Below, piece after piece: positions 46,766 through 60,361 of a stretch of DNA of 64,000 nucleotides. Position numbers and translations under genes: made by a program. Position 1 is the first letter of the stretch. The number at the start of each line of letters is the position of its first letter. The stretch is from Acidobacteriota bacterium. Its GTDB lineage: Bacteria > Acidobacteriota > UBA6911. Below the pieces are notes generated by a model, which saw only the letters and a program-made list of their open reading frames with translations, was not told the origin of the DNA and did no database searches. The DNA lies in assembly GCA_963664705.1 (NCBI GenBank), contig OY761556.1:2880001-2944000 (forward strand), written 5' to 3'.

Positions 46766-46865
46766 GGTCGGTGCCGGTCCCATTTAACTACGCGGAGCGG
46801 CGCAGGCTTTGCGTTATGGCGTTATCTCCGCGAACGCGACATAACCGGCCAATCTCTGCCCGTTT

Positions 46866-48002
46866 TTAGGCTCTGCGGAGTTTGCCCGCCTCTATGATTA
46901 TTTTGGTAAGGCGATTGGAGAGCCGGTTGAGGCATTTGCGTTCAGCACTAATCGGCAGCCCTCGCCGAAACATCTCCATTGCACGTTGAGTTGCGTGCAA
47001 TGAATCGATTACCCCATCTAAACCAGTTCGAATCGGATCCGACGTTCTCGGCTGAGGGACTAAATGTCGAGGTTTTGAATGAGCCAGTTGAAACTCTCTC
47101 TGAAGATCCTTCAAGGCCACTTCGATATAGAGCATTGTCATATTCGGAGAAGTGTGGCCGAGTAATTTCATCAGCACAGGAAAACTGACGCCGGAGCGAA
47201 GCATCTCCGTGGCATAGGTATGGCGAAACTGGTGTGGAACGATGCGAGTGGAGATTTCGAGAGAATAACAAACTTCATGCAGATAATCGCGAAGGCCACG
47301 AACGAGCGCGTACTTGGTGCTGGGCCGCGCCAGAAGTCGACCATCAGGAGGACACGGATCTAGGAAACGAAAGAATCGCAAGCGTTGGATAATCGCGACT
47401 ATCGACGAATCCACCGGGACCATCCGTTCCGTTTTGAGTTTGCCAAGTGGTACGTGAATGGCCCACTGGCGGAGACCAGTCGAGCGGAGGCAATCGACGG
47501 GCAAATCGGCGCACTCGCCAATACGCATGCCGGTATGGCGGAGGAGCAGAAAGACATTCGATCCTAGATCGTTGCGCTTGACGAACTCCTTCTGCAGAAG
47601 CTGATCCTGTTCGGCGGTGAGCGGACGTGCAAGTCTATGCGGGCGGCGCGGAATATCTTCACGACGAATCAGGTGGGCAACTTGAGGAAGCTGTTTGGTC
47701 CACGCCAGTTCTATGAACAGAGGGCGCAAAGCAATGAGCTTACCAATATAGGTAGATGTGGCGAGCGGAGGCGTCTGGGCGCGCAAGTGGGACATCCAGC
47801 CGAGGAGGTGTGGCTCCCGCCGCAGTTGATCTAGGGCGTTTACCTCCGGGTAGTTGGTGCCGAGATAACTAAGGAAGTTACGTACGGTCCCGCGATATTG
47901 GACATGGCTTGCAGAGCCGAGTGCAGTGCAGAGCGAATCGACCGCGCGATCAAAGAGATCCACCAGTGGATGTGAGAGGGGAGGACGCCAGGAGCGTTTC
48001 AT
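46866..48002 (-). CDS. Tyrosine recombinase 2
   Basis: TGMRIGE, KLKTER, HQFRHTYAT, LLGH...MTMLY; ATGA overlap with the upstream recombinase. Confidence 0.95.
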   Translation of the reverse strand: MKRSWRPPLSHPLVDLFDRAVDSLCTALGSASHVQYRGTVRNFLSYLGTNYPEVNALDQLRREPHLLGWMSHLRAQTPPLATSTYIGKLIALRPLFIELAWTKQLPQVAHLIRREDIPRRPHRLARPLTAEQDQLLQKEFVKRNDLGSNVFLLLRHTGMRIGECADLPVDCLRSTGLRQWAIHVPLGKLKTERMVPVDSSIVAIIQRLRFFRFLDPCPPDGRLLARPSTKYALVRGLRDYLHEVCYSLEISTRIVPHQFRHTYATEMLRSGVSFPVLMKLLGHTSPNMTMLYIEVALKDLQREFQLAHSKPRHLVPQPRTSDPIRTGLDGVIDSLHATQRAMEMFRRGLPISAERKCLNRLSNRLTKIIIEAGKLRRA

Positions 48003-49045
48003 GAAGGAAGCCTCGGAAGGGGGCGGACTTGCAGCGCTACTGCGCGCGTATACTGCTGGTAAACGTCTTGTGGTGTGATCTGCACATAATGCAGGGTCGT
48101 CTGGATATCGGAATGCCCCATCAACTGCATAAGTGCCGGCAGGCTGATTCCGGCGCGTATCATATCGGAAGCGAATGTGTGCCGGAAGCGATGTGGGTGA
48201 GCAAGCGGAATGCCAGTGTGCTTGCGATGGTAACGGAACAATGACCGCAGTCCGGCCAGAGTCATACGGAACCCGCGGGCCGGTCCCTTGAGCGAGACGA
48301 AAAGCGCAGCGGTGGCAACCTGGGGTCGTTCCCTCCGCCGATAGTGGTCGAGGAGTTGCACTGTCTCCGGCGCCAGTGGCAGTAAGCGTATTTTGTTACC
48401 CTTGCCGCGTACGCGCAGCTGCGCTTCGGAGAGCAACAAGTCGTCCTCATTCAGCCCCAACACTTCGGCCGAGCGAAGCCCTTGAAGAAGCATTACTCCT
48501 ACGAGAGCCAAATCGCGAGCCGTACGGAAACTGGACCAAAAACGCGCCACCTCGTCCACCGAAAGCGGAACAAGTTGGCGTTTGGGCACTTTCACTCGCA
48601 GCCGGCTTATGGCTAGGCGCCGACGGCCTAGGCCCAGCGGTCCACGCCGCAAATAAACATGTTGGAAGCCCTGTGCCATGGACGATGGGGAGTCGGGGAA
48701 CTGGTTGCGAAGAGCACGATCGGCAACGCCAACACGGTGATTGATTGTGTAACTGGAAATCGGGGGTTGGTGGTTACACTGGAACTTCAGATAATCCTGG
48801 AGAGTCGATTCGGTCAGGTCGGCTGTGCAAACCTCAGCGGTGTGATGAAGACTCTCCCACCAGCGAACAAAATGTAGCAGGTAGTAAGCCCATGCTCGCA
48901 GAGTAGTATCCGCCAACCGACGGACATACTCGTGATCAAGGTAGCGATTGATCCAGCCAACCTCCTGACCGGTTTCTTGCTCGACCACACGAACCGGGCT
49001 TTGTGCTGTGTTGCGAATCTGCGGGCGAATCACACAAAATTTCAT
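47999..49045 (-). CDS. Tyrosine recombinase 1
   Basis: GLRSAE, GKGNK, HRFRHTFAS, MGHSDIQTTLHY; probable start MKFCVIR. Confidence 0.95.
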   Translation of the reverse strand: MKFCVIRPQIRNTAQSPVRVVEQETGQEVGWINRYLDHEYVRRLADTTLRAWAYYLLHFVRWWESLHHTAEVCTADLTESTLQDYLKFQCNHQPPISSYTINHRVGVADRALRNQFPDSPSSMAQGFQHVYLRRGPLGLGRRRLAISRLRVKVPKRQLVPLSVDEVARFWSSFRTARDLALVGVMLLQGLRSAEVLGLNEDDLLLSEAQLRVRGKGNKIRLLPLAPETVQLLDHYRRRERPQVATAALFVSLKGPARGFRMTLAGLRSLFRYHRKHTGIPLAHPHRFRHTFASDMIRAGISLPALMQLMGHSDIQTTLHYVQITPQDVYQQYTRAVALQVRPLPRLPS

Positions 49046-49082
49046 AGCTGAGCCAAGCTCCAGAAAAGAATGTGTATCAGAG

Positions 49083-49400
49083 TCAGGCAGCAGGAAGTTC
49101 AAGTACCTGGTAGACTCCATCTTTGAATGCGATCAGATCTCGCGTCAGGAGTTCATCACGGGCGCCGGTAAGTTCGTGGCGGTGATGAATCTCGAGGAGT
49201 TCCGCCATACGTTCGTCGGAATAAAAACTCACACCATCCCGATTAGCAACAGCGACCAAGATTAAGTAGAGAAGCTTTTCCAATCGGGTTAGTCCCTGAT
49301 CGAAACCCTGCCGAAAAAAACGATGGTCAATCCAACTGAAAGAACCGCGGATGGTGCGGATTCGATCCGGCTGTAGTGGTTGAGGTCGTTTGTTCATCAT
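49083..49400 (-). CDS. Small element-encoded protein, possible winged-helix DNA-binding protein
   Basis: 105 aa, FSWIDHRF...LLYLILVAVA.RDGVSFYSD....LL...YQVL.LP; co-oriented upstream of the recombinases. Confidence 0.7.
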   Translation of the reverse strand: MMNKRPQPLQPDRIRTIRGSFSWIDHRFFRQGFDQGLTRLEKLLYLILVAVANRDGVSFYSDERMAELLEIHHRHELTGARDELLTRDLIAFKDGVYQVLELPAA

Positions 49401-49479
49401 GCTTTCCCCATTTTGTACATGCCGAAATTAACGAAGCTATATGGAATGAATCAATATGTCGGGACTAAATCTAAAAAGC

Positions 49480-49983
49480 TCATGGGCGGCTGGGGCAACG
49501 ATCCGACCAACGTCTCTCTCGTTCCAGAACTCGTTCGAGAGCGCGGCGACATGCATAGGAACAGAAGCGTTGCAGGGGCGACCGCCGGCTGCGGTGGAAT
49601 TCTTGGTATCAACCAGGGCGATCGCAGGAACACGAAAATAAATTTCTTATAATGACCCTCGCGTCGCCGGCCGGGCCCTTGTTTTGTTGCGTGCGCTCCT
49701 TTTGCCGCACTCTGTATCTGTGGCTTTGAACGCGGCGAACCTGCTTTCCACCATCAGTTTTGCGGTACTTTTGCCGGGCTTTCCACTCTCTCCATTTTCC
49801 CGCCTCATTGCGGCAATGCTCGCTACAATAGCGTGCTCGGGGGTGTTCCGGCCGGAATATGCGACCGCAGCCTTTCAGCAAACACGCACGGGCGCGCGGC
49901 CATCTGGCTTTTCGCTTGGTATGGGGTCTTGTTCCTTTTGCTTGATTTTGAAGGAGAATTATCGGATGTTCACGAGGGCCCAT
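49480..49983 (-). CDS. Basic protein with two Cys4 zinc-finger-like motifs, interrupted by an in-frame TGA at 49609-49611
   Basis: CLLKGC..F......YCSEHCR, then CDRPG*YQEF......RFCSYACRR continuing in frame for 42 codons. Confidence 0.65.
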
Positions 49984-50348
49984 GGGAGTTGCCTCTCCCA
50001 GAAGCTCAAGCCTCGAGGGGGACCCATTCCCCTTCGGGGCGCACTGAGCACAATTGGATGCAATATCCTTAACCCTGCTCTTAGATTAGGATCGGAATTA
50101 AAACTGGCGGGATTACTCGTAAATCAAATTCAATTTTCCGAGCAGTCATAGTCCTTTGGGGTTGTAATTGCGGAGCACCCGAAAAAAGGCGGAGAAGAAT
50201 AAGGGAAAAGCTATTTATCTCACTTCATAATTTGAAGATTCACGGAAATTCTTTATAGACCATTTTTGATTATTGGCCGGTTATTTTGGACTTCGTGGGA
50301 GTAAGCCGAAAAAATCAAATACTTACACTTGATGGTACAATGATGTCG

Positions 50349-56509: not shown

Positions 56510-56677
56510 ATGAATACTGCACTTCTTTTTGTCGCAATGATAGGAAGTTCGGTTGCGACTGCTTGCGTTGCCGCAGCAAAACATAGGAGTGTCATTTTGT
56601 GGACGATTATAAGTTTAACTATTCCAATCCTGCCCTTGATCGTAGTACTCATCTTGCCAAGCAAGACTTCCGGATAA
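56510..56677 (+). CDS. 55-aa two-TM microprotein, cassette gene (not in the ORF track)
   Basis: TATAAT at 56475, RBS AGGAG, MNTALLFVAMIGSSVATACVAAAKHRSVILWTIISLTIPILPLIVVLILPSKTSG*. Confidence 0.65.
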   Translation: MNTALLFVAMIGSSVATACVAAAKHRSVILWTIISLTIPILPLIVVLILPSKTSG

Positions 56678-56710
56678 ACGGCCAGAACCGACGCAAGGAG
56701 GAGGAATTTG

Positions 56711-56751
56711 CATTGTGGCGTTATGTCCTCGAATCGGACTACAGGACAATT
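56711..56751 (+). repeat. Class A site
   Basis: CATTGTGGCGTTATGTCCTCGA|ATCGGAC|TACAGGACAATT. Confidence 0.85.
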
Positions 56752-56781: not shown

Positions 56782-57270
56782 TTATTTATCACTACGTATA
56801 TTTCTTCTGAAATAATATAGGTGAGGTTCTTTCGGATTGCGACCAAACTCAAATCCATCCTGGAAACGTGTTATCGGGCCGTATGATGAAAATGTGTTCA
56901 TGAAATAAATTCCTTCTTCAATGCCATCCCGGAGATTTAACACAATAGCTACATTTAACCGATGATTGTAGACTCGCACCGGCTTTAGTTCCTTTATGGC
57001 ATCAGACCAGCAAACGGATGGAATCTCGAATTCGCCCTTGTCAAAGAATTCTGGAGGAGACCATGCTTTTCCTGTCGACGGGAGCAAGTTTTCACACTTA
57101 CTGTTGCTTTCGAAAGCGGCTGCCCTTATTTCGTTAATGCTTCGATTCGATTTCAGAATTATGTGGCTGAAGCCAACTGCGCTTGTTATCAGTTCCTGAG
57201 AAAAGACGGCCATGCCAACAATGAGAATAATTAAAAGCAACGACGCCACGCATATTAGATAATTTTTCAT
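56782..57270 (-). CDS. Secreted or membrane-anchored hypothetical protein, cassette gene
   Basis: RBS GGAGG then MKNYLICVASLLLIILIVGMAVFS. Confidence 0.7.
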   Translation of the reverse strand: MKNYLICVASLLLIILIVGMAVFSQELITSAVGFSHIILKSNRSINEIRAAAFESNSKCENLLPSTGKAWSPPEFFDKGEFEIPSVCWSDAIKELKPVRVYNHRLNVAIVLNLRDGIEEGIYFMNTFSSYGPITRFQDGFEFGRNPKEPHLYYFRRNIRSDK

Positions 57271-57479
57271 AGAATGCCTCCATTGGCATGGAGCATTTTC
57301 AGCAGTCAATGGAATTTTCCATTGTGTTTATGCATCCCAGCAATTGTGTCCATTATATACAAAGTTAGAGGTTATCCCGATCAATATATTCGACAACTCC
57401 TCGCCGAGGAGCATTTGCTATCATATGTATTAAGAACGATTTGTGGCATTTTATGGCGCTTACTGGCCTGAAACGGGAA

Positions 57480-57729
57480 TTAACCGGCCAATATTGCACG
57501 TATTATGGAATTTCCCCATGAGATTTGGATAGGAAATCAGCTAAATAGCTTGTCCCATATTCTTCTTTTTTCTTCTTCAGATTTGATGCGAGCGGCTTAT
57601 TTACAGGGTGCTGCGACCAGCAAAAATGCGGGCCTACTTATCCACACATATTGGTTCTTGATCGTGTTATAGTCAAAGAAGCAATAGACTTCGCATACCC
57701 TGAAAAACTGGCAGAGATTGGCCGGTTAA
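57480..57729 (+). mobile_element. 250-bp non-autonomous relative of the dual-recombinase element, inserted in a class B site
   Basis: TIRs TTAACCGGCCAAT and ATTGGCCGGTTAA; 57710-57728 is the exact reverse complement of 46842-46860; 57539-57566 matches the reverse complement of 50193-50220 at 25/28. Confidence 0.85.
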
Positions 57730-57758
57730 ACGGCAATGTGGGAAACTGTAAATTTCTG

Positions 57759-58022
57759 TTAATTAATCAGGTCTTTTACTTTTTGCCATTCGGATATTGC
57801 TGCCGCACAGACGTCATCAACGGGCCACATTTGCCCCCAGAGACGATCATGCCTTGTTGCGGCTTCCATAACCAATTCTATGTTGGCTCCCGTATTTACC
57901 AAAGCCAGTAAGACTGCCGAATCGGCAAGAAGTATCCGAAAAATTTGCCTGTCTTCAGCTTGGTGAGTCTTGTTTGCGGCTTGATCGAGGCTGATGATGT
58001 ACTGCGCAATCTTTCGTCTCAT
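57759..58022 (-). CDS. Hypothetical protein, cassette gene
   Basis: 87-aa ORF filling the space between two class B sites. Confidence 0.55.
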   Translation of the reverse strand: MRRKIAQYIISLDQAANKTHQAEDRQIFRILLADSAVLLALVNTGANIELVMEAATRHDRLWGQMWPVDDVCAAAISEWQKVKDLIN

Positions 58023-58142: not shown

Positions 58143-58174
58143 GATCCCAAGAAACGGCAATGTGGGAAGTAACC
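58143..58174 (-). repeat. Class B site
   Basis: - strand GGTTACTTCCCACA|TTGCCGT|TTCTTGGGATC. Confidence 0.85.
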
Positions 58175-58223: not shown

Positions 58224-58538
58224 TCAAGCAGCGTCAATATTCACTCTCATCTTCAGACCTGCTTCATCAATAAGTTCCTGGAGTGAAAGGCGCACGAATT
58301 GCTCCGGACTGCGGCCCAGAATCTTGGCGAAGCGCGCGGCCCGTTCTGCGCCTACAACCTTGCGGCCTTTTTCGATGTCGCAAAGGTGCGAAGGGGAAAC
58401 GCCGAGTTTGCGAGCAAAGGCAGTTTGAGACATTTCCTCACCCAGGCGGATCGACTCTATAAGCCCCCCTAGGGTTAGCGGCCTACCGGCAACCCGTTCC
58501 AAATATTTCATTGTGTTGCTTTTTGTTTTAGTACGCAT
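58224..58538 (-). CDS. XRE-family HTH antitoxin (HigA-like)
   Basis: MSQTAFARKLGVSPSHLCDIEKGRK; start overlaps the toxin 3' end. Confidence 0.85.
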   Translation of the reverse strand: MRTKTKSNTMKYLERVAGRPLTLGGLIESIRLGEEMSQTAFARKLGVSPSHLCDIEKGRKVVGAERAARFAKILGRSPEQFVRLSLQELIDEAGLKMRVNIDAA

Positions 58539-58771
58539 GCTTTGAAATCTCCTCCACCGAAACAAATTCGATAGAACCGTTGTCATACACTCGATAAATA
58601 GCCCTGTATGCTCGGCTCAATCGGATAGATCGCTGCCCCATTCGGTTGCCATGCAGGGGCTCGTCATGATAGACATAATGGAGTGATCGGTCTCTAGCAT
58701 GTAATATCGTGGGTTACAGCTGAAGTCGTGGTGACGAAGCTGCAGAGCCATAAAACATGAGGAGACCGATC

Positions 58772-59866
58772 ATGGCAGATTGTATCACTTGGGTAGGGAT
58801 GGATGATTCAGCAAAAAAGATAAACGTCGCAATTTTTCGCGGGCAGGAAAGTAACCCTCGAGAAGAACTTGTTGTATCAAACGACAGTACGGGGCTGGGT
58901 CGGTTAGCGAAAAAGCTAAGGGCATTTGAAGATGATGTACGGTGCGTCTACGAAGCGGGCGTTAATGGATACTATTTGCAGCGCTATTTGGCCAAACATG
59001 GGATTTCTTGTGAGGTTGCGGCCCCTTCGTTGACTCCGAGACGAGCGGGGAAAAAAGTAAAAACGGATAAGCTGGATGCGAAAGCCTTGGGCAAATTGTA
59101 CCGAGCGGGAGAACTAACATGTATTGTGATCCCGCAAAAAGAACAGGAAAGTCTGCGAGATCTGGTGCGTGCGCGAGAAGACGCATTGGAAGACCAGCAG
59201 CGAGCACGGCATCGATTAGCACGGTTTCTGATGCGACGTGGATTGAAATATCCGCAGGGCAAGAACTGGTCGCTTGGGCACCTAAAGTGGATTAAGAGCC
59301 TTGTGTTTGAGGATGATGGGGATCAAACAGTACTGGAGGAATATCGACAGGCGCTTGAGCAACAGACGGAGCGGTTGAAAACATTCCAGGGAAAAATCGA
59401 GGAAGTTGCAAAACAGCCGAACTATCAAAAGCGAGTCAGCTATTTGATGGCGCTAAAAGGCGTTCAGGTTCTGACGGCGATGACGATTATCGCAGAAGCG
59501 CTCGATTTAAGACGGTTCGTTGATGCGCCTTCGTTTATGGCCGCTATTGGGGTGGTGCCTTCGGAAAGCAGCTCAGGTGAACTTGAAAGACGGGGAAGGA
59601 TAACCAAAACGGGAAACAGCCACCTACGTAGGGTGCTGATCGAAAGCGCCTGGCACTACCGTCATTCTTCAGTAGCTGGCAAAACTCTCAAGAAACGACG
59701 AGAGTGTTTGCCGGCAGAAGTTATCGAGATTGCACAACGTTGCGATAAGCGATTGAATCAAAAATTCCGACGCATGCTCAACCGAGGGAAAGAAAGACAA
59801 AAGATCGCGGTTGCGGTAAGTCGAGAATTGGCAGGATTTATCTGGGCTATCGGTCGTGTTGCATGA
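58772..59866 (+). CDS. IS110-family transposase/recombinase
   Basis: VGMD, YEAG, KTDKLDA (DEDD), GVVPSESSSG, ITKTGNSHLRRVLIESAW, VAVSREL. Confidence 0.95.
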   Translation: MADCITWVGMDDSAKKINVAIFRGQESNPREELVVSNDSTGLGRLAKKLRAFEDDVRCVYEAGVNGYYLQRYLAKHGISCEVAAPSLTPRRAGKKVKTDKLDAKALGKLYRAGELTCIVIPQKEQESLRDLVRAREDALEDQQRARHRLARFLMRRGLKYPQGKNWSLGHLKWIKSLVFEDDGDQTVLEEYRQALEQQTERLKTFQGKIEEVAKQPNYQKRVSYLMALKGVQVLTAMTIIAEALDLRRFVDAPSFMAAIGVVPSESSSGELERRGRITKTGNSHLRRVLIESAWHYRHSSVAGKTLKKRRECLPAEVIEIAQRCDKRLNQKFRRMLNRGKERQKIAVAVSRELAGFIWAIGRVA

Positions 59867-59939
59867 CATAAGGCACCAGCTCTTGCAGCTATTTTGTTCT
59901 TCAATGGATTAATAACGGAAACATTCGGTTAGTGAACGG

Positions 59940-60125
59940 AACAGGAGATCGAGTTCCAGGCTTCGAAAGGAGAAACCTCGACCTGGCTATGTTGGTATGG
60001 GAAACCAGAATCCACGGAAGTAGAGTGAGGCCGCTCCCGATGAATCAGTTGTCATGCGTGCTTATCGACCCGCGAATATCAGATTGATTATCGTCGCTGT
60101 TGCCAACTCGATCCCCTGTTCTTTT
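59940..60125 (+). ncRNA. Putative bridge/seek RNA in the IS right non-coding end (boundaries approximate)
   Basis: Enclosing stem AACAGGAGATCGAGTT...AACTCGATCCCCTGTT; contains target match ACCTGGCTAT (59981-59990) and donor match ATATCAGA (60076-60083). Confidence 0.65.
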
Positions 60126-60361
60126 TACTGGCTGATTTATTTATGAACCGAAGAAAACCAAAATGAACGAACAAGGAACGGATTGATTGTACTTGACCGA
60201 TCACTCCATATCAGCCAGGTATTTTTCTCACCTCTTCGAGTCCACGCTCCTCAACATCTTCCACCCAGGCGGCGAGGTTTTCCACGATGTGACGTGGTAC
60301 CGTTTGCAGCTGCTTACGCGCTCGCTTGCTTAGCTCCACCTGCAATATCATATCGATTCTA

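Follow-up and report, generated by a model that had tools for sequence, protein, structure and literature searches.

The window, the whole 64,000-nucleotide stretch analysed here, comes from the 6.9-Mb genome of an Acidobacteriota bacterium (G000) and contains a short, gene-less element inserted into a split dif-like site. A 250-bp relative of a larger recombinase element had originally been predicted here; the letters quoted for it are present, and its exact span is 57480-57729. The element and the site it occupies comprise the following features:

57480..57729, minus strand (the large element's orientation): miniature non-autonomous element, from inverted repeat to inverted repeat, 250 bp, 42% G+C, delimited by family alignment
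57717..57729, minus strand: left terminal inverted repeat, TTAACCGGCCAAT; likeness to the large element's left end runs to about 57669
57480..57492, plus strand: right terminal inverted repeat
57539..57566, minus strand: conserved right-subterminal block, 25/28 identical to 50193-50220, a predicted protein-binding site or part of a promoter
57473..57479, minus strand: element-borne 7-bp tag TTCCCGT, its last three bases CGT, the putative spacer of a circular form
57730..57736, minus strand: target-derived 7-mer TTGCCGT, consisting of the left arm's last base and the 6-bp class B centre
57737..57746, minus strand: left arm of the split class B site, XerC-arm-like
57462..57472, minus strand: right arm of the split class B site

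The ends of the miniature form a perfect 13-bp inverted pair, of a kind that occurred in 12 of 5000 shuffled 400-mers. Counted from its second base, the left end is identical over 19/19 bases to that of the large element beginning at 46841. This match and the 25/28 block, both claimed beforehand, hold on alignment, and the real likeness extends further: on the left it covers about 61 bp (79% identity), on the right 93 bp (70%). Between these stretches, ~100 bp in the middle have no counterpart in any of the 68 large-element sequences that we collected. Element and target site are both inverted with respect to the large element and its site, so their polarity is the same, as predicted. No recognisable gene lies within the 250 bp, bearing out the claim that a recombinase gene is absent; a single 55-aa ORF overlaps the element. 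Contigs built from short reads of the same sample place the miniature on a single 7,442-bp contig, with zero differences and at single-copy depth; they exclude an assembly error and do not amount to independent support.

Other readings of the 250 bp were considered and rejected. As a structured RNA, the element gave a z-score of -2.6, for which the inverted ends act as the closing stem, a covariation term of -0.16 over 10 sequences and no Rfam match. The 55-aa ORF has no Pfam match, and its frame looks broken in several relatives by inspection, which spoke against a small protein. A promoter was dismissed on 4 matches compared with 2.1 +/- 1.6 in shuffles.

The larger relative in the window comprises these features:

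46841..50284, plus strand: autonomous relative of 3,444 bp, with three further copies in the genome
50285-50291: its tag TTTGGAC, the same in all four copies
47999..49120, minus strand: recombinase 1 (IntA), a TnpA-like short tyrosine recombinase of 373 aa
46866..48002, minus strand: recombinase 2 (IntB), 378 aa, whose homologue in Tn554-like pairs is the C-terminal half of the long partner
49083..49400, minus strand: small ORF with a weak helix-turn-helix match (HTH_36, E 0.014, below cut-off)
49609..49983, minus strand: cysteine-rich small ORF of the primase-less subfamily

All four large copies occupy class A (GAC) sites, with a constant right 7-mer and a variable left one, and each has two PF00589 matches. 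Tyrosine recombinases are encoded by every one of the 68 large-element sequences. The six catalytic residues of IntA (R216, K240, H310, R313, H336 and Y345) are invariant in 65/65 family sequences, as are the six of IntB in 60/60. A DnaG-type primase replaces the two small ORFs in 63/68 large-element sequences. By inspection, cysteine-rich and helix-turn-helix ORFs resembling those of the local element are also found ahead of an IS21-like element and of a distant two-recombinase element (L268:1142-1576 and L262:3901-4786). A class A site at genome position 5876395 (L115:12395) has a centre that reads as the large element's tag and then A; it may have been left by an excision or may be where the tag came from.

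IntA is 37% identical (E 4e-55) to the short recombinase of a Tn554-like pair from Rhodococcus, and IntB is 29% identical (E 6e-30) to that pair's long recombinase, over its C-terminal half; comparison with the host XerD gave 31%, for the catalytic part alone. A near-identical terminal repeat is found in 6/6 Rhodococcus modules. Judged by their homologous recombinases and by the ends that they have in common with actinobacterial tnpAB modules, the large elements are Tn554-like. Such modules have been called Tn554-like before, and plasmid pBD2, which was matched here, is named among them in the accessible part of that source (PMC3414803). The closest named relatives of the large element come from Acidobacteriota, and the family is large: 4,069 of 7,999 scored candidates, more distant recombinases included, passed E 0.001 for IntB. 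The Rhodococcus plasmid modules that we inspected (L269-L274) are tnpABC modules with a fixed TGCCTG upstream, and their insertions apparently fall at a single motif within transposase genes of the IS3 family, two of which are annotated and the others assigned by inspection. A 59-bp element elsewhere (L282, G014:C1:603287-603345) has its two terminal repeats separated by just 33 bp, and its flanks lack a 3-base match.

The site split by the miniature belongs to a family of 28-bp sites with two spacer classes, A and B, and its neighbours in the window are these:

58143..58170, minus strand: unoccupied class B site, the next along
56723..56750, plus strand: unoccupied class A site, bounding the module on the other side
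56782..57309, minus strand: single-gene module downstream of the split site
57759..58022, minus strand: lone small ORF between two class B sites

With the element removed, the miniature's site scores 22.8 on a profile built without it. Scores of at least 20 were reached at 41 places in the genome, compared with 1 in a reversed-genome control. The sites fall in six clusters, in which 44 score at least 16 on a profile trained on these same clusters; 41 of the 44 centres lie outside ORFs, although ORFs cover 71% of those regions. Of the 44 sites, 42 end in GAC (33) or CGT (9), while 13 variants occur among the opening three bases of the centre. Conservation is confined to the 28-bp core and a weaker upstream motif. 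The site pattern has at least 10 matches in 23/51 family genomes, compared with 0-4 in controls; one of the site-rich genomes, G066 (81% complete), yielded neither the end motif nor IntA. A homologue of the 56782..57309 module in G017 also lies between two inverted sites, in different flanking DNA.

Several observations concern the surroundings of these sites. Window positions 29600-60470 form an array of mostly single-gene modules bounded by the 28-bp sites, and comparable clusters lie near genome 1.35, 5.02, 5.62, 5.88 and 6.71 Mb, and three clusters are close to tRNA-Arg genes. Back-to-back A/B pairs 50-70 bp apart occur at window 44263/44326 and 55506/55560, and in relatives too, and a TTTACATTTTGGCGTT-like motif lies upstream of many A sites. 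A toxin-antitoxin-like module lies between two class B sites at window 58224-60351, and its upstream gene is apparently interrupted by an IS110-family element (58670-60219) whose depth is about seven times that of single-copy DNA. At window 56552-56730, a contig of low depth from another study's RNA library matches the small module and then runs into a different class A site variant, a weak hint of shuffling at the site.

The 22 genus-level targets, aligned in an 11-6-11 register, match the family's XerC arm at 7.1/11 on the left, a score that peaks in this register, and, inverted, at 6.2 on the right, over a background of 2.9 +/- 1.5. The match of the right arm to XerD is 4.5/11, and the XerD arm is not conserved. 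Orientation does not alternate: among 19 pairs of neighbouring sites in the window, 12 share a direction. Membership of the host dif in this site family was rejected, as the host dif scores -11.9 on the site profile. The candidate host dif lies at genome 2036985-2037012 (L120), 2.5 kb from xerD and near the skew maximum, and its pattern has matches in 92/101 class genomes. The attC site of integrons is a 60-140 bp hairpin with RYYYAAC/GTTRRRY ends. The best match to the integron integrase model TIGR02249 in G000 reached 87.6 bits, compared with a cut-off of 265. Recombinase candidates from searches with XerD in six genomes and with PF00589 in G000 were XerC, XerD, the element's own pair and weaker matches. 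The sites thus have the geometry of dif modules and a layout resembling that of integron cassettes, yet appear to belong to neither. In another genome, G013 (L250-L255), about 12 near-canonical Xer sites with conserved 25-bp flanks lie between small genes and grade into degenerate forms; these sites possibly link dif with the A and B sites.

To place the miniature in its family, we searched related genomes, of which 12 of 61 matched, the present genome among them, and scanned metagenomes, which gave at least 120 stretches. From the matches listed in genomes and metagenomes we assembled 100 distinct complete insertions (67 large, 33 miniature), leaving out elements without an end or 20 bp of flank, duplicates and spurious loose pairings. 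No further copy of the miniature was found in G000 by BLAST or with the family profile, nor any plasmid copy; in viral contigs, the end motif occurred in 2 stretches. At least 10 of the 32 other miniatures collected are full-length colinear relatives, 66-78% identical (5 in G024, 1 in G007, 1 in G029 and at least 3 on metagenome contigs), and one additional relative is in another genus. Each of the 10 sits in its own copy of the site, judged from the flanks. The claim of an independent insertion at the same position and polarity of the site family is thus upheld, and the relatives found by the wider search share the site position and have non-random flanks. In G007 (contig C410), DNA 71% identical to the 205 bp past the right arm begins at an intact, empty class B site, which pins down the insertion point.

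Other miniatures collected fall into size classes of 183-196, 252-276 and 435 bp. A 24-bp block at the right end is found in 11/12 elements of 239-255 bp and in 4/67 large elements (0/2000 shuffles), and all four of those large elements belong to the local primase-less subfamily, indicating that the miniature descends from it. The same block is found in 0/9 miniatures of 263-276 bp, and relatives of 183-185 bp share only ~26 bp of the left end, so the suggestion that the miniature outlines the minimal cis sequence failed. The local miniature has the longest branch (0.27) in the tree of the 250-bp family, and by this measure the copy is old.

Across the 100 insertions, the left and right flanking 7-mers agree at positions 1 to 7 in 37, 10, 23, 87, 98, 98 and 100 cases. 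Their last three bases are equal in 96/100, with 4/100 breaking the rule. Among the 74 insertions that were not selected on CGT, the last three bases are equal in 71, compared with a mean of 23 and a maximum of 36 in shuffles, a test that overstates the effect because related copies are not independent. A scan for CGT elements left the right tag unconstrained, and it ended in CGT in 25/26. The recurring triads are GAC (37), CGT (29), GCC (13), GGC (7), TGT (6) and CTG (4). At the local locus, the flanking pair ACGGGAA/ACGGCAA was rejected as a target-site duplication, given that just the last 3-4 of the 7 bases match over the 100 insertions. Across these insertions, the base that opens the left end goes with the triad, being A after GAC and GCC and T after CGT, TGT, CTG and most GGC triads.

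The two flanks also differ in constancy. Within subfamilies, the right 7-mer is the same in 89/119 pairs and the left in 11/119, and one element (L062) keeps its family's tag on the right side despite a different target, arguing that the tag is not a duplication. In the tree of the 250-bp family, at weak support (72/88), the tag follows the tree with 2 changes, a number as low in 1/200 shuffles; in the 184-bp family it is not clustered (3 changes, as low in 54/200 shuffles). Distant clades at other targets keep the 3-base rule in 7/7 elements. The Rhodococcus modules have a fixed upstream 6-mer and no 3-base match, indicating that the superfamily as a whole does not share this match. The 7-bp tag is inherited by the element, and just its last 3-4 bases match the target; the edge triplet that matches the site likely helps to decide which sites the miniature can enter. 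Locally, the miniature belongs to the CGT class and all four large copies to the GAC class. No autonomous CGT-type element was found in G000; such elements exist in other genomes, and one of them (L153) bears the miniature's exact tag.

We favour the interpretation, with a probability of roughly 0.7, that the 250-bp element is a gene-less miniature of a Tn554-like family, likely moved in trans by the two tyrosine recombinases of that family, which splits a dif-like site at the position used by its relatives and whose tag would be an address inherited by way of a copy-out circle and one-strand exchange. Bound to the 13-bp inverted ends, the recombinases would copy out a circle, the joint of which would consist of one end, the 7-bp tag and the other end; the tag would come from the flank on the upstream side of the genes. 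This circle would pair with a site in which the same triplet, here CGT, closes the 6-bp centre; one strand pair would be exchanged within the 3-bp match and the junction resolved by replication, a step that fits with the primase of most large elements. Four mismatched bases would block the ordinary second exchange by tyrosine recombinases. The target's own 7-mer would stay on one side and the tag return to its original side, such that the inherited tag would direct GAC elements to class A and CGT elements to class B, and a rare capture of the opposite flank would change the address. The contigs of seven sequencing runs, from assemblies that drop rare forms, contained no joint of a circle or of an empty allele at the miniature; one run, X5, is fragmentary, and its loose ends look chimeric.

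Host XerC and XerD could instead integrate the circle, as they do for IMEX elements, or could occupy the site and recruit the element's recombinases. The dif geometry and XerC-like arms of the targets would suit such a route, as would miniatures in assemblies where IntA was not found and the near-canonical Xer sites between small genes in G013; IS1202-family elements are described, in the accessible parts of two sources, as targeting Xer sites (10.1101/2022.12.17.520857; PMC10132070). However, the element's ends are not dif-like and are common to Rhodococcus modules within IS3-type transposase genes, distant clades with the same ends use other targets, and the host dif fails on the site profile. 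The right arm matches XerD at only 4.5/11, and the inner ATAA/TTAT motif, said to be needed for Xer cutting (10.1101/2024.04.09.588662), is not conserved. We consider this route unlikely.

Ordinary two-strand excision and integration by the same enzymes, through a mismatched overlap as in Tn916-type elements, should scatter the tag and target 7-mers over both sides. The observed constancy of the right 7-mer but not the left, and the identical tag on all four local large copies, make it quite improbable, even though a 7-bp overlap with partial homology would fit and tags differ between subfamilies. The miniature could also be an immobile deletion remnant of a large element once inserted at this site, as its single copy, diverged ends and longest branch might suggest; its middle, absent from 68 large elements, is nevertheless colinear in 10 relatives at other sites, a pattern that independent deletions should not produce and that largely refutes a remnant, leaving it very improbable. 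If the miniature were a classical MITE that a DDE transposase mobilises and that duplicates 7 bp of its target, this would account for the inverted ends and the 6/7 flank match at the local locus but not for the poor agreement at positions 1-3 or for the tyrosine recombinases of all large elements; the flank counts refute this reading, and its chance is negligible.

As to what moves the miniature, we infer mobilisation in trans. The 24-bp block common to the miniatures and to the local large element's subfamily makes that element a plausible helper. A simple local helper is disfavoured by the miniature's single diverged copy, by its different tag class and by eight miniature-bearing assemblies of the genus (G005, G006, G007, G017, G021, G022, G024 and G029; 84-100% complete, in about 20-800 contigs) in which IntA was not found at E<=1e-60. 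IntA was found in 3/30 genus genomes. The miniature may have arrived already inside its module, or may have been moved by a helper that has since been lost.

MITEs, Tn554-like transposons and elements that hunt Xer sites are already known. In the openly accessible literature that was covered, no tyrosine-recombinase transposon turned up with a family of miniatures that inherit a target tag, and a prior description may exist; in the accessible text of a 2024 MITE review, the words 'tyrosine', 'recombinase' and 'Tn554' are absent (PMC10969869). The interpretation we favour would extend the MITE concept to bacterial tyrosine-recombinase transposons and would add a third pattern, a fixed tag with a 3-bp match, to how Tn554, SE, GInt and RIT elements move. 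The miniatures also offer a natural substrate of 183-250 bp with GAC, CGT and TGT variants, on which strand choice and the target code are directly testable, and they point to site-bounded single-gene arrays that are common in the family. More tentatively, the A and B sites could be an undescribed, integron-like cassette platform in Acidobacteriota without an integron integrase, in which the centre triplet (GAC or CGT) would sort cassettes, transposons and miniatures into compatibility classes and all would recombine by one-strand exchange. If so, the miniature's ends and the two recombinases would make a compact integrase whose target class could be reset by three tag bases.

The comparisons with known systems that follow draw on the accessible portions of the sources cited. 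Like prokaryotic MITEs (TIMEs), the miniatures are short and gene-less, have inverted ends in common with an autonomous partner and occur in several independent copies; unlike them, they have a tyrosine-recombinase pair as partner, no true duplication and a strict target (PMC10969869). With the 'pdif hunters' IS1202 and ISAjo2 and with Acinetobacter dif modules they share a parasite aimed at 11-6-11 sites, which delimit small accessory modules, toxin-antitoxin ones included (10.1101/2022.12.17.520857, PMC10132070, PMC13141974). IS1202 and ISAjo2, however, are DDE elements that insert 5 bp outside the site with a 5-bp duplication, whereas the miniature splits the site centre; and, unlike in the Acinetobacter modules, the XerD arm here is not conserved and the sites do not alternate. 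RIT elements resemble the large element in size (~3.5 kb), overlapping recombinase genes and inverted ends, but have three recombinases rather than two (PMC8138268, PMC3414803).

SE elements come closer in flank behaviour, with the target's 6-7-mer next to one end and a carried 6-7-mer next to the opposite end, and in a copy-out, copy-in model that uses tyrosine recombinases only. They differ in having four genes (intA, tfp, intB and srap), one large recombinase, Gammaproteobacterial hosts and a median length of 15.7 kb; moreover, their donor's left flank moves to the new right end, whereas the tag here is constant. SE elements act like Tn554 in this spacer relay, and the same source, from 2023, lists the route of Tn554 as unresolved (PMC10214605). 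For a staphylococcal element of the Tn554 family, circles are reported whose 7-bp spacer usually derives from one flank and only rarely from the opposite one, and the spacer is relayed to the element's other end on jumping (PMC12486829).

The Tn554 family and tnpAB(C) modules are alike to the elements described here in having two adjacent, co-directional tyrosine recombinases and no target duplication, in carrying along a 6-7-bp spacer and in using one orientation per site (PMC3414803, PMC12486829, PMC7843796). The differences lie in gene content, ends and tag. The second recombinase has 378 aa here compared with 611-828 there; no TnpC gene is present (it is optional in actinobacterial modules), IntB stops 25 bp from the element end, and a primase or two small ORFs lie upstream of the recombinases. 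The ends here are perfect 13-bp inverted repeats and the targets intergenic and dif-like. Finally, the elements here have a 3-4-bp target match and miniatures of at least three size classes, and their 7-mer is fixed rather than relayed from the last target, as seen in 89/119 subfamily pairs and 4/4 local copies.
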